A DNA stretch of 64,000 bases, taken from positions 10,313 through 74,312 of the forward strand of contig JAFGPG010000069.1 of the NCBI GenBank assembly GCA_016926075.1. Reading direction: 5' to 3'. Source of the stretch: Methanomassiliicoccales archaeon (lineage in GTDB: Archaea; Thermoplasmatota; Thermoplasmata; Methanomassiliicoccales; UBA472). Both the position numbers and the translations under genes were made by a program. Under the pieces are notes generated by a model. The model saw only the letters and a list, made by a program, of their open reading frames with translations. It had not been told where the DNA came from and did not search any database. Shown piece by piece: positions 5,328 through 64,000 of the stretch (positions within the stretch are counted from its first letter, which is position 1; the number at the start of each line of letters is the position of its first letter).

Positions 5328-5328
5328 G

Positions 5329-22249: not shown

Positions 22250-22346
22250 CGAGCCCCCAGGGAAAACAGCTCATTAATCCTTTTCCGTCGATCCCTGCGA
22301 ACGACGCAGAAGGCTTTAATGGCGCGATCGTGGATTAGACCACTTG

Positions 22347-49658: not shown

Positions 49659-49761
49659 GAGCAACACTCCGAGCGATCGCCGGGGACCCCTTTCATCGCG
49701 TGGCCGAACGCTCATCGAAACTTAATTACGCTGGGAGGCCTATTTTACATTCGAGGTTTTG

Positions 49762-49857
49762 ATGGCGGAGTGCATTGTTTGCGGGTGCGTTCTAAAGAAG
49801 CACCAGGACAAATGCCCCATATGCGGAGCTTCTCAGACCGAAGATGATGATTATTGA
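49762..49857 (+). CDS. 31-aa zinc-ribbon mini-protein
   Basis: Below the track cutoff. MAECIVCGCVLKKHQDKCPICGASQTEDDDY has two CxxC knuckles 10 residues apart. GAGG lies 6-9 nt upstream. Confidence 0.5.
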   Translation: MAECIVCGCVLKKHQDKCPICGASQTEDDDY

Positions 49858-50309
49858 CCGCCTGTCGGGGTCCGTTTCGGCCATTTCGGGGACAGGTCCA
49901 GTCGAATGACTCCACGTCCATGTGATCGCTTGTTCTTTCCTAAGCTCACCGAGGGACTAGGGGCATTGGGATCACCGCACTGTGCGGACAAGGTCCCAGG
50001 TCAAAGGCCCTCTGTGCAGCTCCACAGTACCGCCAAGCGTATCGCCGCCTACCTCCCTCCGCCCCATCTTGAAGAACGTCGAGGAGATCGGAGCGTAAGG
50101 GCGCGTTTTGCGGTGCTATGGTATGGATCGTAAGGTCGCTGCAATGAAGTCCTAGCTAAATGCGTACAGAGATTTAAATGAAGATAGCCGTCCATGGCAG
50201 CAACGGCTTAGCGGTCCACGTATGTGAAAAAACTGAGATATATTATCTCGATAAAAAAATGAAACGTATGCGGATAAACAGCATTAACAATAGTAGATGG
50301 CACGTCAAT

Positions 50310-50364
50310 ATGGATGTATTATCCATCCATCCAAAACGGCATGGATATTTCATCCATCCATCCA
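50310..50364. promoter_or_regulatory. tandem palindromic operator candidate: 2 x ATGGAT-N5-ATCCAT(CCATCCA), 31 bp apart
   Basis: Copy 1: ATGGAT 50310-50315 / ATCCAT 50321-50326, extended to (ATCC)3A at 50321-50333. Copy 2: ATGGAT 50341-50346 / ATCCAT 50352-50357, extended at 50352-50364. Immediately upstream of the TATA-like box of the corrinoid gene. Confidence 0.6.
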
Positions 50365-50376
50365 AGGGTTTATTAC

Positions 50377-50424
50377 TTTAAATTGAAATTGGGACACAGA
50401 AAACATCTTAGGAGGAAAACTGAA
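50377..50424 (+). promoter_or_regulatory. TATA-like box and SD of the corrinoid protein gene
   Basis: TTTAAATT at 50377-50384, about 41-48 nt before the ATG. GGAGG at 50411-50415, 9 nt before ATG 50425. Confidence 0.55.
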
Positions 50425-51060
50425 ATGGCAAACTTCGACGCATTGATCGAAATAGTTGTTAAGGGGAAAATCAAGGAGGCCAAGGGAGAGACCCAGAAGC
50501 TCCTTGATTCGGGGATCTCCGCAAAAGAAATCATCTTCAACGGGCTAAGTGAGGCCATGAAGATAGTGGGCGACAAGTACGAGAAGAAGGAGTACTTCCT
50601 GCCTCAGGTTCTTCTTTCGGCGCAGACCCTGTACCAGGGATTGAACTTAGCCTTGCCAAAGTTGGACAAGACCTCGGCCGATGCAGCCGGTAAGATCGTC
50701 ATCTGCGTGGTCGAAGGTGATGTGCACGATATCGGCAAGAACATCTGCAAGGCCCTGCTGACCGGCGCCGGTAACACCATGTTCGACCTGGGCCGCGATG
50801 TGCCCCTGAAGGACATTGTAGACAAGGCCAAGACCGAGAGCGCCCAGATCATAGCCACCTCGACCCTTATGACCCCCACCCTGGCGGGCATGAAGGAGAT
50901 CGAGAAGATGCTCAAAGAGGGCGGCTTAAAGGGACAGATCAAGACCATGGTCGGTGGCGGTGCCACTTCCCCGGACTTCGCCAAGTCCATCGGTGCAGAC
51001 GGCTGGGGCTACGACGCCAACGAGGCCGTCCGCGTGGCCATTGACCTGCTGAAGAAGTAA
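50425..51060 (+). CDS. methyltransferase-cognate corrinoid (B12-binding) protein, MtaC/MtbC/MtsB family
   Basis: 211 aa, the real part of track ORF 50314..51060. Contains an N-terminal helical cap, VEGDVHDIGKN (DxHxxG), ATSTLMT (SxL) and MVGGG. Strong SD and highly-expressed-looking codon usage. Confidence 0.9.
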   Translation: MANFDALIEIVVKGKIKEAKGETQKLLDSGISAKEIIFNGLSEAMKIVGDKYEKKEYFLPQVLLSAQTLYQGLNLALPKLDKTSADAAGKIVICVVEGDVHDIGKNICKALLTGAGNTMFDLGRDVPLKDIVDKAKTESAQIIATSTLMTPTLAGMKEIEKMLKEGGLKGQIKTMVGGGATSPDFAKSIGADGWGYDANEAVRVAIDLLKK

Positions 51061-51062
51061 AA

Positions 51063-51090
51063 GGGGCATACGCCCCGTCACATTTTTTTT
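51063..51090 (+). terminator. hairpin plus T8 terminator after the corrinoid gene
   Basis: GGGGC-ATAC-GCCCC (51063-51076), then TTTTTTTT (51083-51090), starting 3 nt after the stop. Confidence 0.65.
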
Positions 51091-51179
51091 ATCACCAATT
51101 GTTAATATAATATATTTACAATAAAAATTTTGTGCACTCTATTATACAGGAAGGTCATGCCTATACTAGGAGCGTTCCC

Positions 51180-51995
51180 ATGAGCGATAATGGCATATCG
51201 GTAGAGAAGGAACTGCTGGAACTGAAGGACCGGGTGAAGGAGATGGACATGGGGTTGAGACACATACTAGCCCTCTTACAGACCTCACCGCCCCTGTCCC
51301 ATCCCGTCGACCGGACGTTCCTCCTGCTGCGGGAGGAGGCCAGAGATAGGGCGCTCACCCGTCTGGACGCGGGAATGGTAAAAAGATGCGAACTGCGCAA
51401 GGACTGTCGACATAAGTTCGCCGATTTCCTGGAACGGAACCTGGAGCTGCTCGACCTTCCGCGTATAGAGGAGGACAACATCCTATCGCGCATGGAGGAG
51501 CTGGAGGCCATGAGGTCCAAGGCGGTGCCCGGACGATGTGACGACTGCTTTGACGAGGTGGGCACGCTCTTCAGGCAGCAACAGGAGCTGATGAAGGCGC
51601 TGAGACTATACCGAAGCCATGAGGAGGTGAGGCAGAGCCTGGACACGCTTCCGGAGGCGGAGGTGGTGAAGGAACTGCTCGAACCCCTATCTAATGTTCA
51701 ACGACTGAACATAATGAAATCCCTGGTCAAGGCCCCCCGCTCCTTCTCCGAGCTTTCCTCTGTCACCAACCTGCGCGGTGGCAACCTGCTGTACCATCTG
51801 CAGCGACTGACCGCGACGCAGATGATCGTTCAGAGGGGCGGCCGGGGCGACTATGCGCTCTCCGAGAGAGGGACCAGGGCCCTAGAGATGGTCAACGACC
51901 TGTACCTGAGGACCCTGACCACAGCGACGGGGAAGGTGACGGAGAAGGCAGATCAGGGTCGTACTGTGATGGGACCAAGTCCTCCTTGCCCATGA
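51180..51995 (+). CDS. ArsR-type wHTH regulator with a long N-terminal coiled-coil / 4-Cys domain
   Basis: ATG 51180 (track GTG 51132). C-terminal LEPLSNVQRLNIMKSLVKAPRSFSELSSVTNLRGGNLLYHLQRLTATQMI is an ArsR HTH. N-terminal ~165 aa are heptad-rich with Cx5C (C70, C76) and CxxC (C120, C123). Confidence 0.8.
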   Translation: MSDNGISVEKELLELKDRVKEMDMGLRHILALLQTSPPLSHPVDRTFLLLREEARDRALTRLDAGMVKRCELRKDCRHKFADFLERNLELLDLPRIEEDNILSRMEELEAMRSKAVPGRCDDCFDEVGTLFRQQQELMKALRLYRSHEEVRQSLDTLPEAEVVKELLEPLSNVQRLNIMKSLVKAPRSFSELSSVTNLRGGNLLYHLQRLTATQMIVQRGGRGDYALSERGTRALEMVNDLYLRTLTTATGKVTEKADQGRTVMGPSPPCP

Positions 51996-52042
51996 CCGTT
52001 CACGGAACGGGCGCGGCTACGTAAGTTCTATTAATATTCAAT

Positions 52043-53437
52043 ATGGTCACCCTCAGCAAAGGGGAGAGTGGAGGAATGAGGACACCATCCAGCCGCATTA
52101 TCATCGGTCTGATATTGGGCTGGGTCCTGACCTTCGAGGGCTTCTTCGCCCTGTCCGTCGCGGACTCGGCGACCATTGCGGGCTTCGGAGGGATCAAGGG
52201 GACAACATTCACCACGGCCGCGGTGCAGTTGGTCCTTCTGGGCGTCATCATCTCCATCAGTTGGGCTTTCCAGTCCTGCAAGTTCGGTATCCACCTTTCC
52301 CTGCCGCCCAAGGTCATGACGGCCACGGTCTATCTGACCATGCTCCTGGTCACGATGGAAGGGCTGGTCGTGGTGCTCCTGGCCGGGGACGTCACGGTCG
52401 CCGGTTGGGGAACGGTGGGCAAGGAGTACATCGCCTTGGTCGGAGCGCAGATGTGCGCCCTGGGACTCCTCTCCCTCCGCAACTGGAGACTACGGGAAAC
52501 CCCACCCACCAACTGGGCCGTGGACCTGCTCGGTTCTCTGGCCGCCGTTCTGCTGGTATTGGAAGGGTTGACCGCCATGGGCATCGCCGGTAGGACCGTC
52601 ATCGAGGATTTCGGAGGGATAGGGGGAGGCACCTTCTACCTGGCAGGGATACAGCTCTTGCTATTGGGCCTCTTGCTGTTCATCATGTGGACCTTACCGC
52701 CCCGACTTTCCTTCTCCCGACTAGGTAGGTTGCTGAGCGATAGATGGTCCTGGGTCATAGTGATGACCTTGGGAACGCTGGCGGCATTGGAAGCATTGGT
52801 CGCTTCCACCCTGGCCGGGAGGATGGTCATCGCGGACATTGGCAGCATCTCCAAGATATACGTGGTGGTCGGATGCTCCCAGTTATTCGTTCTCGGCCTG
52901 GCAGCCCCGTTGCTCTGGAAGCTTCGCAACGCTTCTCTCGACCGCAGGGCGCTCCTGGACCTCCTGAACGTCACCGCCATGACCGTGCTGGCCTTCGAAG
53001 GGGTCTTCGCCATAGGTCTGGCGGCCCAGACCCATATCGATGGCCTGGGCATCATACGGGAGCGGACCTTCCTCCTGGCCGGAGCGCAGTTGCTGGTCCT
53101 GTCCCTACTAGGCCTGTCCGCTTTTTTTGTCCAGGGAAACCTGCTCCTGGGCAGGTTGGGCAACAGAGCTTTCTCCTCACTGCCCGTCGCAGTCCTGACC
53201 TTGATCGGGCTGGAAGGGTTGGCGGTGACGCTCCTAGCGTCCAATATGAACATCTCAGATTTCGGGGGAATAAGGGAACGTTATGTTCTGCTAGGAGGGG
53301 TTCAGATGGTCCTGCTCTCAACGACGGCCCTACTCCTTTGGGTTCGTTCGCGCCGTATCCCGCCCAGGTGCATGAAGGTGGCCATATCGGCCGCGATCTT
53401 CCTTGTGCTCATGATCCCGATAGCCATTCTTCTTTGA
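52043..53437 (+). CDS. polytopic membrane protein built from six tandem ~72-aa two-helix repeats (unknown family)
   Basis: 464 aa. Each repeat reads helix-with-Glu (xxEGxx), loop (I/V)x(D/G)(F/W/I/L)G(G/T/S)I, then helix (G/A)xQ(L/M)xxLxLL...W. The Glu residues sit at aa 32, 106, 174, 250, 319 and 391. Alternative start ATG 52076. Confidence 0.8.
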   Translation: MVTLSKGESGGMRTPSSRIIIGLILGWVLTFEGFFALSVADSATIAGFGGIKGTTFTTAAVQLVLLGVIISISWAFQSCKFGIHLSLPPKVMTATVYLTMLLVTMEGLVVVLLAGDVTVAGWGTVGKEYIALVGAQMCALGLLSLRNWRLRETPPTNWAVDLLGSLAAVLLVLEGLTAMGIAGRTVIEDFGGIGGGTFYLAGIQLLLLGLLLFIMWTLPPRLSFSRLGRLLSDRWSWVIVMTLGTLAALEALVASTLAGRMVIADIGSISKIYVVVGCSQLFVLGLAAPLLWKLRNASLDRRALLDLLNVTAMTVLAFEGVFAIGLAAQTHIDGLGIIRERTFLLAGAQLLVLSLLGLSAFFVQGNLLLGRLGNRAFSSLPVAVLTLIGLEGLAVTLLASNMNISDFGGIRERYVLLGGVQMVLLSTTALLLWVRSRRIPPRCMKVAISAAIFLVLMIPIAILL

Positions 53438-53490
53438 GGTCCTTAAATTAATCTTAAATATCGATTCCTCTTTCCTTAGGGATTGTTAAT

Positions 53491-55467
53491 ATGACGAGGC
53501 GGAGATTAGGGCTGGGAATAGACACCGGTGGTACCTACACCGATGCGGCGGTGGTGGACATGAGCGACCTGACGGTCTTGGCCAAGGCCAAGTCCCCCAC
53601 CACCTACCACGACCTATCCATCGGGGTCATGGGAGCCATCGACGGCATACTGGAACAGAAGACCTATGACCTGGAGGACATCGCCTTCGTCGGTCTCTCC
53701 ACCACTCTGGCCACCAACTCCATACTTACCGGCAAAGGGGGAAAGGTAGGGCATATCGGTATCGGGTGGACCCCCCAGCCCAACTTCAGCTCCGGAGCGG
53801 ACATGGACGCCTATGTCAAGGGAGGGCACGGGGTGTGGGCCCAGCAGCAGGAGCCTCTGGACATCGAGGCTGTTATGGAGGCCATCGAGAGGATGAAGGG
53901 AGAGGTGGACTCCTTCGTCGTTTCCGCGCACTTCAGCGTTTACAATCCGGTACATGAGAGGGATGTCGCCGAACTCATCAAGAAGATGAGCGGCCTACCC
54001 GTTGTGCTGGGGCATCAGCTCAGTTCCGAGCTGGGGGTCCCCCAGCGTTCCGTCACCGCCGTGCTCAACGCGCGGCTCCTGCCCGTCATATCAGAGTTCC
54101 TGGAGGGGGTGGAGAGGTCCCTTACCGAACGGGGGGTCACCGCCACTATACTGGTGTTCAAGGGCGACGGTACTTTGATGAACCTGAACATGGCCCGGGA
54201 GAGACCGGTGGAGACCATACTCTCCGGGCCAGCGGCCAGCCTCATGGGCGGCAAGATGCTGTGCAACGAGCAGAACTGCATAGTGGTGGACATAGGGGGC
54301 ACATCCACCGACATCGCCTATCTCGACGATGGGTTCCCCCGCATATCCAAGGAAGGGGCCTCCGTGGGCAATTGGCGCACCAGGGTGAAGGCCATCGACA
54401 TATGGACGGTGGGCTTGGGAGGGGACTCCCACGTCATCTCGGACCAGAGGGGCATGTTCAAGATCGGACCGGAGAGGGTCATCCCCCTGGCCATCGCCGC
54501 CTCCAGCCATCCGTTCATCAAGGAGAAGATGGTGACCACCAGCGAGACGAACTACTATCTGCACGTGGAGAGGGACACCAGCAAGCTGACCTCTCGGGAG
54601 AAGGAGATCTACGACTTCGTCAAGGCCAATCCCATGTGCACCCTGAACGAGATCAGGATGGGCGCACCGGAGGTCTACAACTACCGCAACATAGTGAACA
54701 GGATCAAGGAGCGCGGGTTCCTGCAGATGACCGGGCTCACCCCCACCGATTTCATGCACGTACAGGGCACCTTCGATCGCTTCGACACGGAGGCCGCCCG
54801 CCTGGGCGTGGAGTTCATGGCCAACTGGGGACACATGTCCAAAGAGGATTACATGAACGCCTTCCAGAAGGAGATGATCACCAGAGTGGGTGAGGAGGTC
54901 ATGCGGAAGGTCATCCTGGACGAGGTGGGGGAGGTCTCGGAGAACGGCGGCTTCAACTATCTCCTGCGGGCCACGGTGAACGGCAACAACGGGAGCAGCA
55001 TCACCGCTAGGACCAAGCTTGACCGGCCTCTGGTGGGCATTGGGGCGCCCACGCACATCTACATGCCTCCCCTGGAGGACAGGATGGAGGTCAAGGTCAT
55101 CATCCCCCGGGACCACGACGTGGGGAATGCGGTAGGGGCGGTGTGCAGTCAGATATCAGAGACCATCAGCGTTCAGGTGTACCCGGACAAGGACAATCGC
55201 TTCTTCGTGCTCACCCCCTTCGGTCCTCCCAGGACCTTCACGCACATCTCCTCGGCGCTCGAGAGCGCACGCCGTCAGGCCGAGGAATGGGTCCGTAGGA
55301 GGGCCTACGAGGCGGGGGCGGAGAACATACGCGTGCGCAGCGATACCTACGAGAACACCTACTACGGCGGATTCCTGGTCGAGGGGGAGCAGACCGCCTG
55401 GATCGACGTGGTGGCCCGGGCCACCGGGGAACCACGTGTCCAGCCCAGGAAGAACAGCTCACTCTAG
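53491..55467 (+). CDS. hydantoinase/oxoprolinase-family (ASKHA ATPase fold) protein
   Basis: 658 aa. LGIDTGGTYTDAAVVD N-terminus and VDIGGTSTDIA second phosphate motif. Confidence 0.8.
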   Translation: MTRRRLGLGIDTGGTYTDAAVVDMSDLTVLAKAKSPTTYHDLSIGVMGAIDGILEQKTYDLEDIAFVGLSTTLATNSILTGKGGKVGHIGIGWTPQPNFSSGADMDAYVKGGHGVWAQQQEPLDIEAVMEAIERMKGEVDSFVVSAHFSVYNPVHERDVAELIKKMSGLPVVLGHQLSSELGVPQRSVTAVLNARLLPVISEFLEGVERSLTERGVTATILVFKGDGTLMNLNMARERPVETILSGPAASLMGGKMLCNEQNCIVVDIGGTSTDIAYLDDGFPRISKEGASVGNWRTRVKAIDIWTVGLGGDSHVISDQRGMFKIGPERVIPLAIAASSHPFIKEKMVTTSETNYYLHVERDTSKLTSREKEIYDFVKANPMCTLNEIRMGAPEVYNYRNIVNRIKERGFLQMTGLTPTDFMHVQGTFDRFDTEAARLGVEFMANWGHMSKEDYMNAFQKEMITRVGEEVMRKVILDEVGEVSENGGFNYLLRATVNGNNGSSITARTKLDRPLVGIGAPTHIYMPPLEDRMEVKVIIPRDHDVGNAVGAVCSQISETISVQVYPDKDNRFFVLTPFGPPRTFTHISSALESARRQAEEWVRRRAYEAGAENIRVRSDTYENTYYGGFLVEGEQTAWIDVVARATGEPRVQPRKNSSL

Positions 55468-55788
55468 GAAGAGGACCTCGTTGGACCTCTGGGCCAGGGC
55501 CCTAGACCGGGCGACGAGCCCGGCCTCCACCCAGGCCGCGCTGAGCAGGCCCGCGGGCACCAGGCAGTTGGCGCTCATCTTGACCTCCCGCATGCGATCG
55601 AAGACCCTGCTATGGGACTTGTCCGTAAGGTCATCCATGGTCAGGACCTCCAGGGTCCTGGCGAACTCCCGCACGTTGGGACAGGGGCTCTCCACCCTGA
55701 TGTTGAAGGTACCGTCGCCGTTGTCGGAAGCCTCCACCACGGTCTCATGTGAGCACACCCTCATCTCGATTCGGACCTTGGATACCAT
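55459..55788 (-). CDS. 109-aa hypothetical protein with three Cys
   Basis: MVSKVRIEMRVCSHETVVEASDNGDGTFNIRVESPCPNVREFARTLEV...MSANCLVPAGLLSAAWVEAGL. Good codon usage, no family recognised. The 3' end overlaps the hydantoinase-like gene by 9 nt (convergent). Confidence 0.6.
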   Translation of the reverse strand: MVSKVRIEMRVCSHETVVEASDNGDGTFNIRVESPCPNVREFARTLEVLTMDDLTDKSHSRVFDRMREVKMSANCLVPAGLLSAAWVEAGLVARSRALAQRSNEVLFLE

Positions 55789-55925
55789 GGAACTCAGCTA
55801 TTTCGAGAATATTTCAAATGGTATTTATTGTCTACATTAACATCGTTAAATCCATCATGGAAAGGTTATTATACACTCGATGACCGTTTACTGTTTCAAA
55901 TAATATCGAAATTGTAGGTGGCTTG
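55789..55925. promoter_or_regulatory. AT-rich divergent promoter region containing palindrome TCCAT-C-ATGGA
   Basis: AT-rich island. Palindrome at 55851-55861, TATA-like ttattataca downstream, SD GTAGGTGG before ATG 55926. Confidence 0.5.
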
Positions 55926-56978
55926 ATGCTGGACATCCTTCTTGGGGGGCTCGAGAGCGGCATAGATGGCCTGATCGAATACCTCTCAGAACACACCCTG
56001 ACTTGTCTGATACCCGCCTTCTTCATCGCCGGGGCCATTGCCGCCTTCGTGAAGAAGGAGGCCATCCTCAAATACTTCGGACCGCAGACCAAGAAATTCA
56101 TATCATATCCCGTGGCCTCTGTCTCCGGGATCGTCCTGGCCGTGTGCAGTTGCACAATATTACCACTGTTCGCCGGAATATACAAGAAGGGCAGCGGACT
56201 GGGGCCGGCCATCACCTTCCTGTTCGCTGGGCCGGGGATCAATATACTGGCGATCATCTATACGGCTCAGGTGCTGGGATACGACATCGGTCTGGCCAGG
56301 GCGGTGGCGGCCATCGGGATGTCCCTTATCGTGGGCGCGATCATGGGCTGGATGTTCCGGAACGAACGACCCCAGGGTGAGTTCAAACTGCTTTCAAGTG
56401 GTGAAGGGAAGCCCCGATGGGTAATGTTCAGTTTCTTCCTGCTGCTGGTCCTCATCATGGTCGTAGGCGCCGCCAAGATAGAGTGGGTCCCCAAGCTGGC
56501 CATAATCTATGTCCTGACCTTATTGATAGCCTACCTGGTCATCTACCACTTCGAAAGGGAGGAGGTGACTGACTGGGGGCTGGAGACCTGGGACCTGACC
56601 AAGAAGATCTTTCCCATACTGCTCATCGGGACCTTCCTCGTCGGTGTGCTGGCCTTCTTTCTGCCCCCGGAGACCTTCAGGCCTTACCTGGGGGAGAACA
56701 CCATACCGGCAAACCTTGTAGCCGCGTTCATGGGCACAATACTCTACATGCCTACATTGCTGGAGGTACCTATTATAGGCACCACCTTCGGTTATTCCAC
56801 GGGGGTCATGGCCGCCGGCCCTGCCCTATCCCTCCTGCTGGCCGGTCCTACAGTAAGCGCACCCTCACTTGTAGTGCTCTGGAGGATCATGGGCTGGAAG
56901 AGGACCGTGGTCTATGCCCTTCTAGTGGTGGCGGCCTCATCCCTGGCCGGATTGATCTTTGGGACTATGATGGGGTGA
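55926..56978 (+). CDS. COG0701-type permease (ArsP-like / two-Cys membrane permease family)
   Basis: 350 aa from ATG 55926 (track TTG 55923). ...LTCLIPAFFIAGAIAAF...VLAVCSCTILPLFAGIYKKGSGLGPAITFLFAGPGINILAI... matches the family's Cys-x-Cys TM motif. Confidence 0.8.
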   Translation: MLDILLGGLESGIDGLIEYLSEHTLTCLIPAFFIAGAIAAFVKKEAILKYFGPQTKKFISYPVASVSGIVLAVCSCTILPLFAGIYKKGSGLGPAITFLFAGPGINILAIIYTAQVLGYDIGLARAVAAIGMSLIVGAIMGWMFRNERPQGEFKLLSSGEGKPRWVMFSFFLLLVLIMVVGAAKIEWVPKLAIIYVLTLLIAYLVIYHFEREEVTDWGLETWDLTKKIFPILLIGTFLVGVLAFFLPPETFRPYLGENTIPANLVAAFMGTILYMPTLLEVPIIGTTFGYSTGVMAAGPALSLLLAGPTVSAPSLVVLWRIMGWKRTVVYALLVVAASSLAGLIFGTMMG

Positions 56979-57049
56979 TGATATAACATTCGGACGGAGG
57001 AGCTCAGAATGAGGACGGAGAGGGCGTTGGACTCGCGAGGTGATATAAT

Positions 57050-57283
57050 ATGAGGATCGAGGTTTTCGGTATCGGATGCGTGAAGTGCAAGAGGCTGGAG
57101 AAGAACGTAAGGGAGGCGCTGGCCAAGGCCGGGGTAGATGCCGAGGTGGTCAAGGTGGATGATATGACGGCCATCATGGACCAGGGCATCATGGTCACAC
57201 CCGCCCTGGCCATCGACGGAGAGGTCAAGTTCATGGGCAAGGTGCCCTCGGTGGAAGAGCTGATCGGCATGATCAAGGGGTGA
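57050..57283 (+). CDS. thioredoxin-fold redox-active disulfide protein 2 family
   Basis: 77 aa. MRIEVFGIGCVKCKRLEKNV (CxxC) ...TPALAIDGEVKFMGKVPS. GAGGTGAT SD upstream. Confidence 0.85.
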   Translation: MRIEVFGIGCVKCKRLEKNVREALAKAGVDAEVVKVDDMTAIMDQGIMVTPALAIDGEVKFMGKVPSVEELIGMIKG

Positions 57284-57288
57284 GAGGT

Positions 57289-57680
57289 ATGGCCGAGGTG
57301 AGATGCGCCTGCGAGGGCGGTTCGGTGATCGTCTATCCCTGTTCCGGCGCCGCCAACCTGGGACAGGCCTACAACGAGATGGGGCTCAGATTGATGGAAC
57401 AGGGCAGGGCCATCATGTCCTGCCTGGCCGGTGTGGGGGCCACGTTCCCAATCTCACGATGTCCGCCAAGAGCGCGGACCTTGTCATAGCCCTGGACGGA
57501 TGTCAGGTGGAATGCGCCAGGAAGGTCCTGGAACATGCGGGGGTGAAGCCCGGCGTGCACATCGTGGCCACCGAACTGGGATTGACCAAGAAGGTAGATG
57601 AAAGGTGGACGGAGGAGCAGGTGCAGGTCATTGACCAGGCCTTGAGCATCAGGATGCCGAGGAGAAGCTTTCCCGAATGA
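57289..57680 (+). pseudogene. DGC-domain putative zinc-binding protein, interrupted by a 1-nt frameshift in a G5 run
   Basis: Frame A (57289-57489) reads MAEVRCACEGGSVIVYPCSGAANLGQAYNEMGLRLMEQGRAIMSCLAGVG then nonsense and TAG. Frame B (to 57680) reads HVPNLTMSAKSADLVIALDGCQVECARKVLEHAGV.... One extra G at 57435-57439 restores ...CLAGVGGHVPN.... Confidence 0.8.
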
Positions 57681-58021
57681 GGGCCCTGGTCCATACCCCG
57701 AAGAGATGGACGGAATCCCTACCAAAGGCCGAGTTCTCCATCGATCCACGGATGTCTCCCGACCTCGGAGAGCGCACGGAGCGTCGACCGTGGATATGAA
57801 TGCATGATCCCCTTCATGAACAGGTGCGCGATTCCCGTTCCATCATTGGTGCGAGATGACCCGGCATCCCATTGATGGAACATCGTTCGTACCCTTATTC
57901 CTTTCACGCGCGGCAGGATGCCAATTGGGTGAAAAGAGCGATCGTGGCATGGTTAAGTATGCCCTTCATACATCGATCCTGGCCCATGGACGACATGACC
58001 GGTCACTGGAGAGTGATCATG

Positions 58022-58056
58022 AAAAAATAAAAAAAAGAAAGGAAAAAGGAAAAGGG
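58022..58056 (-). terminator. oligo-T terminator tract downstream of the MtaA-like gene
   Basis: The minus strand reads ccccttttcctttttcctttctttttttttatttttt, starting 5 nt after the stop. Archaeal terminators are oligo-T runs. Confidence 0.6.
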
Positions 58057-58060
58057 GCGT

Positions 58061-59068
58061 TCAACCCTTGATGGCCTTTACCAGTGCAGTCAGGTTGTCG
58101 TTCTCGATCAACGCGGAGAGCCCGCATCCCGGAGCGACCACATTGAAACCGGCGGCGGCGCAGCGCTTCGCATGGGCCATACAATCCGCCGGGGTCCCCT
58201 GCAGCAATGGGTTGACCACGCCGATGTTACCGATAAGGGCGGCGCGCTTGTTGACGATCTTCACGCCCTCCTCCGGAACGACCTTCTCCTCGATGGACAA
58301 GGCCTTCACTCCGACAGCTATCATGTTGTTCAGGATGTCGGTCGTGTTGCCGCATATGTGCAGCACACCGATGCCGCCCCTGATGGTCGCCAACGAATCG
58401 CCCATGTAGTTCCCGGCGTACTCGGTGAACATGTCCGGGGACAGCAGATCGGTGCTGGCGGACGGTTCGGACATCTGCACCACGTCGCCACCAGCATCAG
58501 CCAGGGCCTGGGTGTAGGCCTTGCAGATGACGTTGGCGGCAGCGACCCACTTCTTGACCAGGTCCGGGTCCACCATGATGTACAGCACGAGGTTCTCGGT
58601 GCTGACGCAGTGACCAGCCAGGGTGAAGGGTCCAGTGTTACCAGCGATGACCGGGTATTCGGCACCATGGCTGGCCTTCAGTTTCCCTATGGCCTCCTGG
58701 ACGATCGCGGCTCGGCCGCTCTTCAGGAATTCATCAGGCGCCATGAGGTTCGGCTCGTCCTCGAGGGCGAAGGGGTGTCCCTTGACCATCGGGGTCCTGT
58801 CCTTGCGTCCCTGTTCGACGGTGGTCACTTTCAGGCTGTCGATCTCGACGGTCAGGCAGAACGGGGCGCGCACGGCCTCGAACCCGAAGACCTCGGCCTG
58901 AGCCGCGCCCAATTTCGCCATCTTGTCAGCGTCATAGTGGGCCTCTGGCCAGGCAACGCCGATCTTGTCCATCTGTCCCATCGTAGCGCTTTGGGTGAAG
59001 ATAGCGACCGGTGGCCGGTCGAGGTCCTTCAGAGCCAATGCGTCCATCACTCTTTCCCTTGGAGTCAT
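58061..59068 (-). CDS. methylcobamide:CoM methyltransferase (MT2; MtaA/MtbA/MtsA-like, URO-D family)
   Basis: ATG 59068 gives MTPRERVMDAL (track start TTG 59077). Zn motif VLHICGNT plus downstream APGCG. URO-D fold length of about 335 aa. Confidence 0.88.
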   Translation of the reverse strand: MTPRERVMDALALKDLDRPPVAIFTQSATMGQMDKIGVAWPEAHYDADKMAKLGAAQAEVFGFEAVRAPFCLTVEIDSLKVTTVEQGRKDRTPMVKGHPFALEDEPNLMAPDEFLKSGRAAIVQEAIGKLKASHGAEYPVIAGNTGPFTLAGHCVSTENLVLYIMVDPDLVKKWVAAANVICKAYTQALADAGGDVVQMSEPSASTDLLSPDMFTEYAGNYMGDSLATIRGGIGVLHICGNTTDILNNMIAVGVKALSIEEKVVPEEGVKIVNKRAALIGNIGVVNPLLQGTPADCMAHAKRCAAAGFNVVAPGCGLSALIENDNLTALVKAIKG

Positions 59069-59077
59069 TTTTGCCAA

Positions 59078-59272
59078 ATCTATTCCCCCTATAATCCAGT
59101 AGGATTCTGACCTGTCGGAATATCCATTTTACTGTACATTAATCTATCGGGTCTTTCGATGCGTATACTCTCATATAAACAAGTTCAACCCTTGAACACT
59201 GGCTGGATGGTCTTTCTACGAAACGATTGTAAAATTATTAACAAGTGTTCAATCATCCCGGACTTTCCAGTC
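59078..59272. promoter_or_regulatory. AT-rich internal promoter region upstream of the MtaA-like gene
   Basis: 195-bp AT-rich spacer. The minus strand carries TTTATATGA (59171-59180), and the palindrome GTTCAA-CCC-TTGAAC (59183-59197) lies just upstream of it. Confidence 0.45.
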
Positions 59273-60307
59273 CTATGCCTTCCACCCCTGTACAGCCTCC
59301 CTGAGGGCGACGATGTTACCCAAGGGGGTCTTGAAGGGCATCTCACATCCGGGAGCGATCATGAAGCCCGCCCCCTCCCCCCAATCCCCGTGCATGGCAT
59401 CGACCTCCATGACCACCTCCTCCGGCGTGCCCTGGAAGAGCAGGAACATGTGGTCTATGCCCCCGATGACCGTGGTCCGTCCCCTGAACTTTTCATAGGA
59501 GGAGGCACGGTCCTCTCTTCGGGGAGTGAAGTGCAGGGCGACCGGCCGCATGGCCAGATATCCATCCAGATATGGATCGGAGGAGCAATTGTGCACTATG
59601 GAACCCAACCCCTGCGACGTGAAGGAGGACAGAACCTTGGAGAGGTTCCCCAGGTCGAAACGTTCCAAACCCTCAACAGAATTGGTGTCCAGCCCGCAGC
59701 TCCCGTCCTCTATGAACACGTGCCCTACGCCCATCTGCGCCAACCGCTCCCCGTAGGCCGCCGAGGACTGGACCATGACGTCCATCAGCCCCTGGACCAG
59801 GTCCGGATCGGTCCATGTGGCTATGAGCAGAGATTCGTATCCCATCACCTCCCCTGCCATCATCATGGGTCCCGTGATGCATCCCAGCACCGGCAGCTCC
59901 TTGCCCACACTCTCCTGCATGAGCCCCGCGGCCCGCAGGGGGACCGACCATCCCTCGTCCTTCAGGGGGTCCACCGGACGCACGCGGTCCAGTTCGGAAA
60001 GGGAGGCGATGGCGTAGCGCTCCACGCGGGGATAGTAGTCCCGTTCCGGCCATCTCCAGCTGGTACCATGGGCATGCGCCTCCACCAAAAGGTCCCCCCA
60101 ACCGGCCATGACGTTGTCGAAGCCGGTCACCCGCTGAGCGGCGATGGCGATGCGGGCAAAGGCCTCGGGGTCCTCCATGCCCTGACGGATGCTCAGGCCG
60201 GTCGCTCCCAGGATGCTATTGGCCGCTCCCAGATGCTGGTACATGATGGGCGGATGATCGACCGCCTCACTTTTTAACGCCCCTTCGAAACGTTCCCGGG
60301 GGGTCAT
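59273..60307 (-). CDS. second URO-D-family, Zn-type corrinoid methyltransferase paralog (substrate unknown)
   Basis: 344 aa, MTPRERFEGAL. HxC motif as IVHNCSS and APGCE downstream. Only distantly similar to the neighbouring MtaA-like protein. Confidence 0.8.
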   Translation of the reverse strand: MTPRERFEGALKSEAVDHPPIMYQHLGAANSILGATGLSIRQGMEDPEAFARIAIAAQRVTGFDNVMAGWGDLLVEAHAHGTSWRWPERDYYPRVERYAIASLSELDRVRPVDPLKDEGWSVPLRAAGLMQESVGKELPVLGCITGPMMMAGEVMGYESLLIATWTDPDLVQGLMDVMVQSSAAYGERLAQMGVGHVFIEDGSCGLDTNSVEGLERFDLGNLSKVLSSFTSQGLGSIVHNCSSDPYLDGYLAMRPVALHFTPRREDRASSYEKFRGRTTVIGGIDHMFLLFQGTPEEVVMEVDAMHGDWGEGAGFMIAPGCEMPFKTPLGNIVALREAVQGWKA

Positions 60308-60349
60308 GAGGAAGGGTAGGCCGCTTGAAAGTATTATGCTTTACCAGGA

Positions 60350-60817
60350 TCAGTCCTTGATGCGCTTCTCCTTCTCGTAGAAATCGTTGATGATCTCGTA
60401 GTCGATGCCCCGCTGCCTCATGAAGTCGTTGGTGAAGCTCAGCGAGGCCTCCCGCACCTGGGGGTCCCACATACCGTGAACGATGACGTGCACGATGAGC
60501 TCCCCCCGTACCATCACCGTCCCGTCGAAACGGTTCTGCACGGACGGGGGAATGTCCAGATCGATGAGGCTGACGCTGATGGTCGACCCCCCTTCGGCCG
60601 TAAGGAAGGACTTGATGTGCCCGATCATGTCCGCCCCCCGTCTGAAGCACTCCTCTGTAATGCCCTGGACCAGGTCCAGGACCATGCTCTCCGACCCTTC
60701 CTGGTCCAGCGGGTCCCGGACGTAGAGGCGCAACCACATGGAGAACTTGCCCAGCTCGTCCGTGGCCCGGTGCGTCAACAGCTGCCTCTCCTTCTGGTCC
60801 ATCTCATCACTCCCCAT
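60350..60817 (-). CDS. 155-aa hypothetical protein, possibly a detached CobW C-terminal-like domain
   Basis: Overlaps the G3E GTPase gene by 11 nt; alternative ATG 60802 lies 4 nt after its stop. ...MIGHIKSFLTAEGGSTISVSLIDLD...GELIVHVIVHGM... is reminiscent of the CobW_C pattern. Confidence 0.6.
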   Translation of the reverse strand: MGSDEMDQKERQLLTHRATDELGKFSMWLRLYVRDPLDQEGSESMVLDLVQGITEECFRRGADMIGHIKSFLTAEGGSTISVSLIDLDIPPSVQNRFDGTVMVRGELIVHVIVHGMWDPQVREASLSFTNDFMRQRGIDYEIINDFYEKEKRIKD

Positions 60818-61478
60818 ATTCCTTGTCGAAGCGGTCCTCCGCCTCGGTCATGTCCTGGCCGCTCACCTTTTCATGCACCATCAGGTCCGCCACCTCCTTG
60901 ACCCCCTGACCGGTGCGGGAGGAGCCGTATAGGATGCGGACCTGAGGATTGATCCCTCGGACCATGTCGGTGACGCATTGCAGTCGCAAGGCGTCCACCG
61001 CGTCCACTTTGTTGATGAGCACCACATCGGCCTCCACGATCTGTGTCTCCACCAGGCGCCGCACGTTGTCCATGAGCCTGTCGATGCGCAGGGCGTCCAC
61101 GAAGGTGATGATGGGGGACTGCTCCAACATCTTGGGCATCCTCTTGACCGTCTCCGCCGCTGCCTGCCTCAGACCCAATGGTATGGCCACCCCGGTGGGC
61201 TCCACCAATATGACGTCCGGCCGGAAGCTCATGAAGATGTTGGTGACGGTGGTGGTCAGGGTGCCCTGCACCTCGCAGCATATGCACCCTCCGGAGATCT
61301 CCCGGGTATGTATCCCATGCACCTCCATGCACCTGCGGTCCACGTTTATATGCCCCACGTCGTTGACGATGGTTGCCACTTTAAGACCACGGGAGCTCAT
61401 CTCCTTGGCCACCTCTATGAGGAAGGAGGTCTTGCCGCTACCCAAGAACCCTGTCACCTGGGCTATCCGCATTTTCAT
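60807..61478 (-). CDS. G3E-family metallochaperone GTPase (CobW/ZigA/YjiA-like), N-terminal domain only
   Basis: ATG 61478 gives MKMRIAQVTGFLGSGKTS (Walker A). Also GGCICCE (CxCC), ILVEPTG and LINKVD (NKxD). The upstream 54 codons of track ORF 60807..61640 are rejected. Confidence 0.85.
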   Translation of the reverse strand: MKMRIAQVTGFLGSGKTSFLIEVAKEMSSRGLKVATIVNDVGHINVDRRCMEVHGIHTREISGGCICCEVQGTLTTTVTNIFMSFRPDVILVEPTGVAIPLGLRQAAAETVKRMPKMLEQSPIITFVDALRIDRLMDNVRRLVETQIVEADVVLINKVDAVDALRLQCVTDMVRGINPQVRILYGSSRTGQGVKEVADLMVHEKVSGQDMTEAEDRFDKEYGE

Positions 61479-61638
61479 CACACCGGCGCCCTCTATGGCG
61501 TTAATGATATAATTCCATTGCTCCTGAGCACCGTGGGCGACCGCTCTGCTTTCAAGGTACTGGAGCGCATTGAAAACCATCGAAGATTCGGGGACAACAT
61601 TATAAATGAAGTGAGGATATTGTCCCCCGAGGTTATCC
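61479..61638. promoter_or_regulatory. divergent promoter region; 8-bp inverted repeat GGGGACAA-N22-TTGTCCCC brackets the ramA TATA-like box
   Basis: Arms at 61590-61597 and 61620-61627. TTATAAAT at 61600-61607. GAGGT SD at 61629-61633. Confidence 0.55.
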
Positions 61639-63297
61639 ATGGCTTTGGGAGTCGCGCTCGACTTGGGAACTAGCGGTTACCGGGGGCATTTGGTCGATCT
61701 GGATAAAAAGGGGAAGATTCTGGCCACGGCCATCACTATGAGGCACCCCCTGCCGGGGGCCAATATCATGGACCATCTCCATTTCTGGTTAGAGAATGGA
61801 GCGGACGTGGGCCACCGCATTGTCATCGAGACGGTGGACAAGCTGATAACCAGTCTGGGCGCCAAACCGGAGAGGATCGAGCGTGTTTCGGTATGTGGTA
61901 ACCCGGCCCAGATGTCCATGTTCGAGAAGATCGAGATCAGGGACCTGGCCTACGCCGGCCAGTCCATTTTGAAAAGACTGAACGTCAAGATCCCAGAGAG
62001 AAGGGCACATACCATCAAGGCCGAGGAGCTGGGCATAAGTGCCGTACGGCCCACCGCTGACGTTCGCATACCCCCGGCCATTCGCCACGAGATCGGGGCG
62101 GACGCCCTGGCCATGATCATGAAGACCGGACTGATGGAGAAGAAGGAGACCTGCATAGTGACCGATTACGGCACCAATGCGGAGATGGGGCTCTTCTACA
62201 AGGGCGAACTGTACAGTGGCTCCGCCGCGGCGGGACCGGCCATGGAAGGCCAGTCCATCGACTTCGGCATGCTGGCCGCGCCCCAGGCCATATCCGATAT
62301 CAATCTGGGCGAGAACGGAAGATGGTACAACGTGGTGCTCAACGACAAGCTGCATCCCATCAAGTCCGCCCTGGTCGATCCACGGAGCGGGGAGGAGCAG
62401 CGACTGGACGGGGTCATCGCCAGGGGAATCACCGGCACCGGCACCGTAGCGGCCATGGCCGTGGGGCTGGAGACGGGGATCATCAAACTACCTTACGTGG
62501 ATACCCCCGACCGCAAGATCCACCTGACCAACGGCATATACTTCTGCGAGGAGGATGTCCGGGAGGCGGGCAAGGCCAGCGGGGCCATCCGCGCTGGCCA
62601 TCGCACCCTCATCGAGGAGGTGGGAGTAGAGGACGAGGAGGTCAAGACCATGTACATGGCCGGGGCCTCAGGCACATACGTCGATCCCTTAAAGGCGCAG
62701 GTCGTGGGACTCATACCGCGCATCCTGGAGAGGACCGTACAGGCCGGCAACACATCCCTCATGATGTCCTACGACATCCTGGTGGACGATGACGGTCTGG
62801 ACAAGATGCAGGACGTGGCCAATGCCATCTCCAGCAAGCATATCATGTTCGCCCTGAGCAAGGTCTTCGAGGACATCTATGTCAACGAGATCGCCTATTG
62901 GACGGAGGGGATGAGTATGGAGATGTACAACCAGATGGTCAAGGACTCCGGCCTGAGGCCGCTTCCGGACATCAAGCGTCCCAAGGAGATCATTCGCCTG
63001 GTGGTCTCGGACATACCGGTCATCGGGGCCCGCGGCCTACGCACCTTGGACGACGTGGGGGTGTACCTGCTCGGTTCCTTCGAGGGCTGCACGGGCTGCA
63101 AGAAATGCGCTCGAAGCTGCCCTGAATGCGCGCTGATGGTCTCCTCCGTCGGTGATAAGAAGGACAAGAAGTTCCTGGTGAGGGTCAACACCGAGCACTG
63201 TCTGGGCACGGCCTGCAAGAAGTGCCAGTCCTCATGCCCAGAAGGGGTCCTCGATTTCAGCGCCCTCTCCATCGTCAAGAAAGGGGCTGACGTTTAA
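61639..63297 (+). CDS. ramA: corrinoid protein reductive activase (RamA-type: ASKHA ATPase + C-terminal 2x[4Fe-4S] ferredoxin domain)
   Basis: 552 aa with ALDLGTSGYRGHLVD and VTDYGTNAEMG. C-terminal CTGCKKCARSCPEC and CLGTACKKCQSSCPEG. Confidence 0.85.
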   Translation: MALGVALDLGTSGYRGHLVDLDKKGKILATAITMRHPLPGANIMDHLHFWLENGADVGHRIVIETVDKLITSLGAKPERIERVSVCGNPAQMSMFEKIEIRDLAYAGQSILKRLNVKIPERRAHTIKAEELGISAVRPTADVRIPPAIRHEIGADALAMIMKTGLMEKKETCIVTDYGTNAEMGLFYKGELYSGSAAAGPAMEGQSIDFGMLAAPQAISDINLGENGRWYNVVLNDKLHPIKSALVDPRSGEEQRLDGVIARGITGTGTVAAMAVGLETGIIKLPYVDTPDRKIHLTNGIYFCEEDVREAGKASGAIRAGHRTLIEEVGVEDEEVKTMYMAGASGTYVDPLKAQVVGLIPRILERTVQAGNTSLMMSYDILVDDDGLDKMQDVANAISSKHIMFALSKVFEDIYVNEIAYWTEGMSMEMYNQMVKDSGLRPLPDIKRPKEIIRLVVSDIPVIGARGLRTLDDVGVYLLGSFEGCTGCKKCARSCPECALMVSSVGDKKDKKFLVRVNTEHCLGTACKKCQSSCPEGVLDFSALSIVKKGADV

Positions 63298-64000
63298 TTG
63301 CGCCTGAGCTGCGTGATCGACGATCGCACCGGTTCCCGGGACGGTTCACGTATAGTACATAAGGCCAGCGGCAACTTCCTCTCCGAGCACGGCATATCCC
63401 TTCTCATCGAGACCAGCGGGGGGAAGAGGGTGCTCATGGACACAGGGTCCTCAGAAAAGGCCTTCTCCCATAACCTGGAACTACTGGGACTGGGACCGGA
63501 CGACCTGGACCTGGTCTTCATCACCCACGGGCACTACGATCATCTGGGGGCCCTGCCCATGCTGCTGCGCGAAGGGGTGCCCTGCCACACCCACCCCCTC
63601 ACCTTCCAGGGAAAGCGCTTCTTCGATGCCCCAGGCAAACGGAGGGACATCGGGCCGTCCCAGGAACTGCTCTCGTTGCTCGAGGAGTTCCCCCCGGAAT
63701 ATGACGATCGGCCCCGCGAGCTGGTCCCAGGGGTCTGGACCAGCGGGGAGATCAGGCGCGGCAATCGTTTCGAAAGGCCGGTGCACTTCACCGTCGATCG
63801 GGACGGGGAGGAGGAAGAGGACATCATCATCGAGGAGCAGGCCCTCTGCGTCTCCACGCGCAAGGGGCTGCTGGTGCTCACCGGCTGCGGCCATGCCGGT
63901 GTGGTCAACATCCTCTCCCAGATACGGCGGCGCAGCGACAGGAAGCTGCACATGGTGGCCGGAGGGTTCCACCTGGTCAACGCCCCTCCCTCCACCCTGC
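63298..64000 (+). CDS. MBL-fold metallo-hydrolase (COG1237-like); 3' end beyond the window
   Basis: Absent from the track because it has no stop in the window. My translation from TTG 63298 (or GTG 63313): ...SEHGISLLIETSGGKRVLMDTGSS...LVFITHGHYDHLGALP...LTGCGHAGVVN. Starts directly after the ramA stop. Confidence 0.75.
   Translation, partial: MRLSCVIDDRTGSRDGSRIVHKASGNFLSEHGISLLIETSGGKRVLMDTGSSEKAFSHNLELLGLGPDDLDLVFITHGHYDHLGALPMLLREGVPCHTHPLTFQGKRFFDAPGKRRDIGPSQELLSLLEEFPPEYDDRPRELVPGVWTSGEIRRGNRFERPVHFTVDRDGEEEEDIIIEEQALCVSTRKGLLVLTGCGHAGVVNILSQIRRRSDRKLHMVAGGFHLVNAPPSTL

Follow-up and report, generated by a model that had tools for sequence, protein, structure and literature searches.

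The 64,000-nucleotide stretch analysed here (hereafter the window) comes from a metagenome-assembled genome (MAG) of a Methanomassiliicoccales archaeon (GenBank assembly GCA_016926075.1, contig JAFGPG010000069.1, positions 10,313 to 74,312 of the forward strand). Its right-hand end carries a gene cluster for corrinoid-dependent methyl transfer, encoding a corrinoid protein, two proteins of the URO-D family, a putative RamA-type reductive activase, a CobW-type GTPase, a hydantoinase-A-type ATPase, a helix-turn-helix (HTH) regulator and a repeat-containing membrane protein (Table 1). The second URO-D protein, designated UROD2, is 100% identical to NCBI protein JXA45_04390 and belongs to a new clade, and just beyond the end of the window homologs of the MtrH and MtrA subunits of the membrane-bound methyl-tetrahydromethanopterin (methyl-H4MPT):coenzyme M (CoM) methyltransferase are encoded. 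We tentatively regard the cluster as a conserved, Methanomassiliicoccales-specific, soluble hub derived from this enzyme (Mtr), in which methyl groups would pass between pterin and CoM and UROD2 would be the thiol-side partner of MtrA; we judge this reading to be nearly, although not quite, probable.

Corrinoid methyl-transfer systems consist of a carrier and two methyltransferases, here abbreviated MT1 and MT2. The open reading frames (ORFs) of the window were assigned by Pfam and NCBIfam scans, and every gene listed for the cluster by a first-pass annotation, made from the DNA letters alone, was found in its place. The list itself was incomplete, a Thioredoxin_3 gene having been overlooked, and of the three transport-type genes that it counted two are clear (those for the repeat membrane protein and for the ArsP_1 permease) and the third is not. 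The right-hand boundary of the cluster, drawn at position 63297, also needed correction, since the gene for a metallo-beta-lactamase-fold (MBL) protein starts at the next base and is followed by those for MtrH and MtrA. The reported absence of a canonical MT1 was confirmed. The MT1 references (MtaB, MttB, MtgB, MtbB, MtmB, MtvB and Dhaf_4610, mostly from the supplement of PMC10805028) were compared by tblastn with the whole 64 kb at E <= 1e-3, covering TAG-interrupted pyrrolysine genes too, and no match to MtaB, MttB, MtbB, MtmB, MtgB or an O-demethylase MT1 was obtained in the window. The same method identified a single corrinoid gene and two URO-D genes in the entire window. The cfbA, cfbC, cfbD and cfbE genes for F430 biosynthesis are encoded in the window as well, indicating that the organism is an Mcr-type methanogen.

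Table 1. Genes of the methyl-transfer cluster and of the insertion within it (positions in the window; aa, amino acids)
Feature	Position	Strand	Basis of assignment
Orphan corrinoid protein, 211 aa, MttC/MtbC-like architecture, DxHxxG	50425..51060	+	Pfam B12-binding_2 + B12-binding
ArsR/DUF7347-type HTH regulator, 271 aa	51180..51995	+	Pfam DUF7347 30 bits, HTH_5 25 bits (weak)
Six-repeat membrane protein, ~12 transmembrane helices	52076..53437	+	Repeats and hydropathy; no Pfam or NCBIfam match
Hydantoinase-A-type ASKHA ATPase, 658 aa	53491..55467	+	Pfam Hydant_A_N + Hydantoinase_A
DUF6951 small protein, variable insertion	55459..55764	-	Pfam DUF6951 69 bits
ArsP_1 family permease, variable insertion	55926..56978	+	Pfam ArsP_1 240 bits
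Thioredoxin_3 small redox protein, insertion	57050..57283	+	Pfam Thioredoxin_3 92 bits
DGC-domain gene, frameshift-split, insertion	57280..57680	+	Pfam DGC
URO-D #1, MtaA ortholog (methylcobamide:CoM methyltransferase, MT2)	58061..59077	-	PRK06252 302 bits (cut-off 244), TIGR01463 288 bits (cut-off 235)
URO-D #2 (UROD2), new clade of metal-site URO-D methyltransferase	59273..60307	-	Own clade; below NCBIfam cut-offs
150-aa protein, directly downstream of CobW gene	60350..60802	-	No Pfam match
CobW/COG0523-type G3E GTPase, N-terminal GTPase domain only, GCICC	60807..61580	-	Pfam cobW 127 bits
Putative RamA-type ATP-dependent reductive activase of corrinoid proteins	61639..63297	+	Pfam RACo_C_ter 217 bits, Raco_middle, Fer4_7
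MBL-fold protein, 281 aa, 3' end past window	63298..64000	+	Pfam Lactamase_B
MtrH homolog	window-equivalent 64140-65024	-	Pfam MtrH 215 bits, on contig L005
Soluble MtrA homolog	window-equivalent 65026-65796	-	Pfam MtrA 149 bits, on contig L005

Both URO-D proteins retain the metal-site residues H-x-C...C. The first, URO-D #1, carries them as H-I-C-G...G-C-G, scores above the MtaA/CmuA cut-offs and falls below that of the Methanosarcina-trained equivalog NF040654 (313 bits, cut-off 400). Its identity is 35% with M. mazei MtaA (4AY7), 30-32% with MtsA and 52-58% with MtaA of Methanomethylophilaceae; it groups with the last of these in a neighbour-joining tree that was calculated from few reference sequences. 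By sequence, it is an ordinary Methanomassiliicoccales MtaA. The first-pass annotation had named the nesting of both URO-D paralogs within ordinary MtaA/MtbA clades as evidence against its reading; this applies to URO-D #1 and not to UROD2.

UROD2 forms a separate clade in this tree, outside all characterised clades. It remains under all NCBIfam cut-offs (107 and 131 bits against 235 for TIGR01463 and 244 for PRK06252), is 22-25% identical to MtaA, MtbA and MtsA and about 22% identical to MtpA, and aligns weakly and partially with O-demethylase MT1 proteins of the MtoB/MtvB/OdmB/VdmB type; from the tree and these partial alignments an O-demethylase identity was rejected. Assignment to MtsAB, the usual annotation in the order, was also rejected, as the true MtsA and MtsB of M. 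luminyensis are at most 30% identical to the window proteins. The signature of UROD2, H-N-C/D...C-E (invariant H239-N240, Cys or Asp at position 241, C321 and invariant E322), contrasts with the H-I-C-G...G-C-G of CoM methyltransferases. The window protein has the His-Cys-Cys set, and orthologs in the type B clusters described below have His-Asp-Cys. According to PMC10418091, His-Cys-Cys sites mark S/Se-methyltransferases and carboxylate substitutions mark O-methyltransferases, a rule that would make the window protein thiol-type but leaves the chemistry of UROD2 unsettled, because Cys and Asp are exchanged between orthologous clusters. An AlphaFold2 (AF2) model of UROD2 (mean predicted local distance difference test, pLDDT, 95.8) has its best structural match in MtaA (TM-score 0.87-0.89), and HemE also matches. 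The model matches in addition ApcE (PDB 9fou), the epsilon subunit of acetophenone carboxylase, with a TM-score of about 0.6-0.7 and 12% identity.

A word-indexed search of 5.8 billion proteins returned about 80 UROD2 clusters down to 40% identity, followed by a gap to 26%, and all source-named matches were from Methanomassiliicoccales or an unclassified archaeal MAG. In a HMMER profile search about 35 family representatives scored above 180 bits, after which the scores blend into the general URO-D continuum; few of the distant UROD2-like representatives had names attached that would place them taxonomically. Genomes contain two to three UROD2 paralogs, and the protein diverges faster than its neighbours, with 60-75% identity where the corrinoid protein has 87-91%. 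Another contig of the same MAG encodes a distant paralog of the UROD2 superfamily (P0363, JXA45_03250) with the degenerate ligands S-N-C...A-G-E.

The continuation of the cluster is provided by contig L005, which is identical to positions 49273-64000 of the window (no mismatches over 14,728 bases) and reaches 6.3 kb further. After the gene for the RamA-type protein it contains the MBL gene, which begins with the 703 bases that close the window, and then, on the opposite strand, the genes for the MtrH and MtrA homologs, located 0.1-1.8 kb past the window end and within the same conserved cluster. The MtrH homolog is closest to MtrH of the solved Mtr complexes (163 bits), followed by D. hafniense MtgA (126 bits). 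The MtrA homolog matches the cobamide-binding cytoplasmic domain of the solved Mtr subunit (140 bits) and keeps the G-H cobamide ligand, so that the His of the membrane enzyme is conserved; it contains no transmembrane helix or hydrophobic segment and has instead a C-terminal domain, about 100 aa long, which relatives also conserve. Unlike in membrane-bound MtrA-H, where both proteins have their homologs, no MtrB-G genes were found within 10 kb. The lack of MtrB-G genes and of an anchor on MtrA implies that there is no Na+ coupling and that the CoM half-reaction must fall to a soluble enzyme. With MtrAH past the window end, methyl-pterin can be offered as the missing partner substrate, which makes an exotic growth substrate unnecessary, though still possible.

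The region 426-4206 of L005 encodes a DUF169 protein, a 261-aa protein with a glycine motif resembling that of S-adenosylmethionine (SAM) methyltransferases, a DUF1616 protein, an 86-aa protein and a Cys-rich 241-aa protein. This set is conserved upstream of mtrA in type A clusters, and the DUF169 gene also adjoins mtrA in type B clusters and in many metagenome loci. Another lineage, represented by the metagenome contigs L134 (8001-16294) and L133 (GC fraction 0.49-0.55), has a soluble MtrA-MtrH pair that is more distant (37-39% identity), with a distant URO-D protein and a corrinoid protein encoded within 8 kb. The combination of MtrAH with a URO-D protein and a carrier may therefore recur outside Methanomassiliicoccales.

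A census of UROD2, in which one genome per species was scanned and the loci were annotated by tblastn with the cluster proteins, yielded 68 genome loci, mostly from MAGs and all from Methanomassiliicoccales. Type A clusters, found in the window, in UBA472 and in others, comprise MtrA-MtrH, MBL-RamA, CobW-150aa-UROD2-MtaA, the hydantoinase-like protein, the repeat membrane protein, the regulator and the corrinoid protein. Type B clusters have the same content minus the CobW and 150-aa genes, with the MtaA gene inverted and with MtrAH in many, not all, of them. In type C, found in Methanomassiliicoccus spp. including MXMAG1, the minimal unit is UROD2-mtrA-mtrH with a gap of 5 bp between UROD2 and mtrA and with a convergent hydantoinase-like gene; MtaBC is encoded a few kb upstream, and MtaA and the transporter are absent from the operon. 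Gene order and strand vary between these types, and co-localisation persists across type A and B families that have diverged to 42-50% identity. The cluster is, as first proposed, a real corrinoid methyl-transfer unit, conserved in dozens of Methanomassiliicoccales genomes.

Neighbours were counted at the 36 loci with full 10-kb flanks. MtrAH lies within 10 kb of UROD2 at 16 of them, RamA and MtaA each at 18, the hydantoinase-like gene at 19 and the orphan corrinoid protein gene at 20, and any one or more of the five at 24. The linkage was also approached from the side of MtrA, by scanning metagenomes with aligned sequences of the soluble type. This type (>=44% identity) was present at 20 loci that span 8 kb or more; UROD2 lies within about 6 kb of it at 17 of these, and at two of the other three the locus is truncated by the end of its contig. 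More distant MtrA homologs, including those of canonical mtr operons, have no UROD2. The linkage between UROD2 and soluble MtrAH, being seen from both sides, is reciprocal.

About 21 of the UROD2 loci are solo paralogs, whose neighbours are mostly uninformative housekeeping genes except for arsenic-type genes at three loci. The genes that flank the solo paralogs at L041 (9032-13570) and L049 encode TerC, an ACR3-type (SBF) transporter and a fusion of an ArsR-HTH domain with a SAM methyltransferase, and ArsR, a low-molecular-weight phosphatase (ArsC-like) and SBF are encoded near UROD2 at L006 (17940-19993). These neighbourhoods hint at an arsenic link for certain UROD2 paralogs. At L006/L007 and L029 the hydantoinase-like gene is the only cluster partner. 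A different arrangement is present at L063 (7639-19300, Methanomassiliicoccaceae), which encodes a corrinoid protein, an MtsD/F/H-like URO-D protein, UROD2, a second corrinoid protein, CobW, the 150-aa protein and two hydantoinase-like proteins, with MtaA, RamA and MtrAH absent within 10 kb.

In the proposed scheme, whose reactions, substrates and directions are drawn from family membership and synteny, the MtrH homolog would exchange methyl groups between methyl-pterin and cob(I)amide, the pterin being most likely methyl-tetrahydrofolate (methyl-THF), as suggested by Speth and Orphan. Two methyl carriers would be available, the anchor-less soluble MtrA with its gained C-terminal domain and the MttC-like orphan corrinoid protein. 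The thiol side would be served by the two zinc-type URO-D enzymes, of which UROD2 would be a soluble stand-in for the missing membrane half-reaction of MtrCDE/MtrE, coupling MtrA to CoM in either direction. In type C operons the carrier is MtrA and the pterin side is MtrH, so that UROD2 is the sole remaining candidate for the other half-reaction. Its coupling of methyl-MtrA to CoM is the most economical assumption, because the MtrCDE/E half is absent, the nearest relatives are CoM methyltransferases, the metal site is of the thiol type and the family was seen solely in a CoM-using order. Both the nearest characterised relatives of UROD2 and its best structural match are methylcobamide:CoM methyltransferases. 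In the fuller cluster of the window, MtaA, which may methylate CoM from carriers with a B12-binding domain, and the orphan corrinoid protein could form a parallel or complementary route. The RamA-type protein would re-reduce inactivated Co(II), and the CobW GTPase with its 150-aa partner would probably load metal sites, the two thereby maintaining the cofactors. The scheme assigns no role to the MBL-fold protein, the hydantoinase-A-type ATPase and the six-repeat membrane protein.

Several observations weigh against this scheme. MtaA is already encoded in the cluster, and unless it fails to accept an MtrA-type carrier there would be no need for another CoM methyltransferase. About one third of the UROD2 paralogs are solo or accompany other corrinoid proteins or MtaBC (L061, L063 and L075), and several type B clusters lack MtrAH within 10 kb. 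The His-Asp-Cys set of the type B proteins is a carboxylate substitution of the kind tied to O-methyltransferases (PMC10418091). The operon includes genes for a regulator and a membrane protein, as is usual in catabolic clusters dedicated to one substrate, and the hydantoinase-type ATPase, although conserved, is left without a function.

Some of these features would be explained if UROD2 were instead an MT1, or a bifunctional MtsA-like enzyme, for a methylated S-, O-, Se- or metalloid compound that is yet to be identified. The carrier would then be the orphan corrinoid protein or MtrA, and methyl groups would leave through MtaA to CoM for methanogenesis or, as in the Mto system, through MtrH to pterin for oxidation or assimilation; the repeat membrane protein would import the substrate and the ArsR-like protein would regulate the operon. 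We consider this possible but rather doubtful. With UROD2 read as MT1 the layout becomes that of a complete set of MT1, corrinoid protein, MT2 and Ram, its own regulator and membrane protein included. The faster evolution of UROD2 relative to the corrinoid protein, the presence of two to three paralogs per genome, typical of substrate-specific MT1 families, and a signature departing from that of CoM methyltransferases all point the same way, as do the pairing of UROD2 with its own corrinoid protein beside the MtsD/F/H-like pair at L063 and the location of some solo paralogs beside ACR3 and the ArsR::SAM-methyltransferase fusion. Ellenbogen et al. (PMC10805028) argue for methyl-sulfide use by Stordalen Methanomassiliicoccales, and genes from contigs with the cluster are included in their methyltransferase gene list. 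A precedent for an MtrH-like MT2 is found in Mto. However, UROD2 is not an ortholog of MtsA, MtpA, MtoB, MtvB, OdmB or VdmB, and MtsA/MtsB of M. luminyensis are quite different. The type C protein is encoded in an operon with MtrA and MtrH alone, with neither MtaA nor a transporter, and the ArsP-type permease of the window is an insertion. There is no compound that could be put forward as the substrate, and the MALP/UBA472 group has been interpreted as using only methanol.

Several known corrinoid systems resemble the cluster in part. MtaABC and MtbA-type systems share with the cluster the MtaA ortholog, a B12-binding corrinoid protein and RamA, whereas the window lacks MtaB and any pyrrolysine-type MT1, its corrinoid protein is not orthologous and a divergent URO-D protein is added. 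The MtsA/MtsB and MtpA/MtpC pairs likewise combine a URO-D enzyme bearing His-Cys-Cys with a neighbouring corrinoid protein, so that bifunctional logic is possible; UROD2, however, branches outside both, and the corrinoid protein is without the N-terminal extension of MtsB. Mto (MtoABCD) and the bacterial O-demethylases share a corrinoid protein, an MtrH-like pterin methyltransferase, an enzyme of the URO-D superfamily and an activase, but here there is no MT1 of the MtoB/MtvB/OdmB type, the activase is of the RamA type with C-terminal 4Fe-4S clusters, and MtaA and MtrA are additional. The type 1 mlp clusters (Kountz & Balskus, preprint, PMC10418091), compared by architecture only, resemble the cluster in that Ram and a corrinoid protein are accompanied by several MtaA-like URO-D proteins, whereas an MT1 cannot be recognised; they occur in Firmicutes and Methanococcales and contain no genes for a pterin methyltransferase, MtrAH, hydantoinase-like proteins or CobW.

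It is also conceivable, although unlikely in our estimate, that the genes are mere neighbours serving separate pathways. MtaA, RamA and CobW would then be shared housekeeping components for methanogenesis from methanol and methylamines, the orphan corrinoid protein and MtrAH would together supply methyl-THF for biosynthesis, and UROD2 with the hydantoinase-like ATPase would constitute an unrelated two-protein enzyme. The ordinary nature of URO-D #1, the generic RamA, the loci where UROD2 and the hydantoinase-like gene stand without other partners (L006/L007 and L029) and the differences in gene order and strand among cluster types fit this view, and acetophenone carboxylase offers a case in which hydantoinase-A-type ATPases are paired with ApcE, a URO-D/MetE-like barrel. 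Against it, all parts stay together in types A and B across families at 42-50% identity, UROD2 and MtrA are tightly joined in type C, and their linkage holds in both directions.

A role in methylation or demethylation of a metalloid or metal (As, Se or Hg), for detoxification or nutrient acquisition as in mlp/sdm clusters proposed for methyl-selenide use, is very improbable: an ArsR-type regulator and genes for ArsP_1, thioredoxin and DGC do occur in the window, some UROD2 paralogs adjoin arsenic genes and the mlp clusters described above have been proposed for methyl-S/Se metabolism, but ArsP_1, thioredoxin and DGC belong to a variable insertion, the members of the ArsP_1 family are permeases by prediction only, the regulator is weakly matched, and the MtrAH linkage is left unexplained.

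The ArsP_1, thioredoxin, DGC and DUF6951 genes are considered a variable insertion and not part of the core, as only some orthologous clusters contain them; ArsP_1 is present at 5 of the 68 loci, and DUF6951 is missing from most orthologous clusters (e.g. L001 and L009). The block was accordingly dropped as a clue to the substrate, and with it the suggestion that the ArsP-like permease is a sign of a transported methylated compound. Near 57450-57490 a frameshift divides the DGC gene between two frames that overlap, while a single intact ORF of about 135 aa is present in L011, L014 and L015; the split gene is either a pseudogene or the product of an assembly error common to two assemblies of the same sample.

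With an AF2 model of the hydantoinase-like protein (pLDDT 86.8), Foldseek gave matches over the full length (TM-score 0.57-0.64) to the A-type ATPase subunits of N-methylhydantoinase (NMHase), acetone carboxylase (beta), acetophenone carboxylase and caprolactamase (alpha), and no Hydantoinase_B (HyuB-type) partner was found in the gene list of any locus. A function of the protein as a RACo-type or GlmL-type B12 reactivase was dropped as the leading idea, the match to RACo being limited to the shared ASKHA core. In acetophenone carboxylase (ApcABCDE), the hydantoinase-A-type subunits act together with the accessory subunit ApcE (PMC5214803), which has a fold similar to the URO-D/MetE barrel. 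The likeness to the cluster is at the level of fold only, and the beta and gamma subunits are absent from it; ApcE is a possible fold-level precedent for the pairing of UROD2 with the hydantoinase-like protein, to be taken as a lead.

A more specific version of the Mtr-derived hub would give this ATPase a function. UROD2, anchor-less MtrA, MtrH and the hydantoinase-A-type ATPase would together make up a soluble methyltransferase, possibly ATP-assisted, which replaces the sodium-pumping Mtr in H2-dependent methyl-reducing methanogens, and UROD2 would represent a new class of corrinoid:thiol methyltransferase acting on an MtrA-type carrier. We advance this version as speculation with a low probability. 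If true, the enzyme would operate as a methyl shuttle between CoM and tetrahydrofolate, making possible methyl assimilation into acetyl-CoA, methyl disproportionation or acetate-derived methanogenesis.

The soluble mtrAH genes as such were already known. They were described in the MALP genome by Speth & Orphan (2018; PMC6147122), who proposed a methyl-THF:CoM methyltransferase and raised the problems that membrane subunits are missing and that the reverse reaction would need energy input. Later surveys repeated the observation, and PMC9635834 calls the role of stand-alone MtrAH unclear. The mtrAH genes of MALP belong to the same clade and type as those studied here (soluble, with a C-terminal extension of MtrA and a divergent MtrH), and its relative UBA472 carries an orthologous cluster (L011). 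However, the MALP work concerned mtrAH only and named no enzyme for the CoM side, whereas here UROD2, MtaA, the corrinoid protein, RamA, CobW, the MBL-fold protein and the hydantoinase-like protein are linked to it. The neighbouring URO-D, hydantoinase-like, CobW and MBL genes are not mentioned in PMC6147122, in later mtrAH surveys or in the other literature searched. What appears to be new, judged from sequence comparison, is the UROD2 clade and the conserved cluster that links soluble MtrAH. The first-pass annotation had presented the locus as a candidate for an undescribed system, and in the literature searched the cluster is indeed not described; its idea of an unusual methylated substrate fared less well, MtrAH being plausibly the missing partner.

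MtrA and MtrH persist in many archaea without the rest of Mtr (PMC9635834), and for environmental Methanomassiliicoccales, where they were proposed to link methyl-THF and CoM (PMC6147122), no enzyme was known for the CoM half-reaction. The cluster supplies testable candidates, namely UROD2, the co-located MtaA, the second carrier and the maintenance proteins. If the proposed hub operates, predictions of how widespread methanogens of wetlands and sediments gain carbon and energy would have to be revised (methyl assimilation, possible methanol disproportionation and possible acetate use), with consequences for substrate assignment in MAG-based methane models. If UROD2 is an MT1, it would mark an unrecognised methanogenic substrate.

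The remaining cluster proteins are assigned at different levels. The corrinoid protein contains the motif D-V-H-D-I-G, and its true start is probably at 50425 rather than at 50314. It reaches 189 bits with TIGR02370, below the cut-off of 215, which limits the assignment to the family level. It is 38-42% identical to MttC, MtbC, MtgC and MtpC, 31-32% to MtsB, whose N-terminal extension it lacks, and 32% to MtaC; with at most 42% identity it is, on sequence, orthologous to none of these six. Among type A relatives its conservation is 87-91%. The RamA-type protein, 83-89% conserved in relatives, is a putative ATP-dependent reductive activase by domain content, with Raco_middle at 52 bits next to RACo_C_ter and with Fer4_7 at residues 484-537 (C-terminal 2x[4Fe-4S]). 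The GTPase has the GCICC (CxCC) motif, and no CobW_C domain was detected in it; the adjacent 150-aa protein co-occurs with it at 14 of 14 loci. The label 'metallochaperone' is suggested by its membership of the CobW family. The membrane protein (453-464 aa) consists of six repeats of about 72 aa and is conserved beside the hydantoinase-like gene in type A and some type B clusters, and the regulator is conserved at 13 of the 68 loci.

Upstream of the corrinoid gene lies an unusually long intergenic region of 766 bp (49659-50424) with a lower GC content, and no riboswitch or other RNA element was matched by Rfam in 49000-64000. At the opposite end of the window, the F430 genes occupy 1-4581 on the minus strand and 4704-9707 on the plus strand, beginning with a CbiA/CfbB-like ORF cut by the window start and continuing with cfbC, cfbD (394 bits, cut-off 268), cfbE (264 bits, cut-off 250) and cfbA (131 bits, cut-off 120); the siroheme/tetrapyrrole genes sirC-like, hemA and hemC are located downstream. 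The window also encodes an AMP-forming acetate-CoA ligase (28609-30591, minus strand, 1061 bits) and, at 22344-24206 on the plus strand, a CoA-transferase-like protein whose C-terminal region resembles acetyltransferases, both of which bear on the hypotheses of acetate use put forward for the MALP group.

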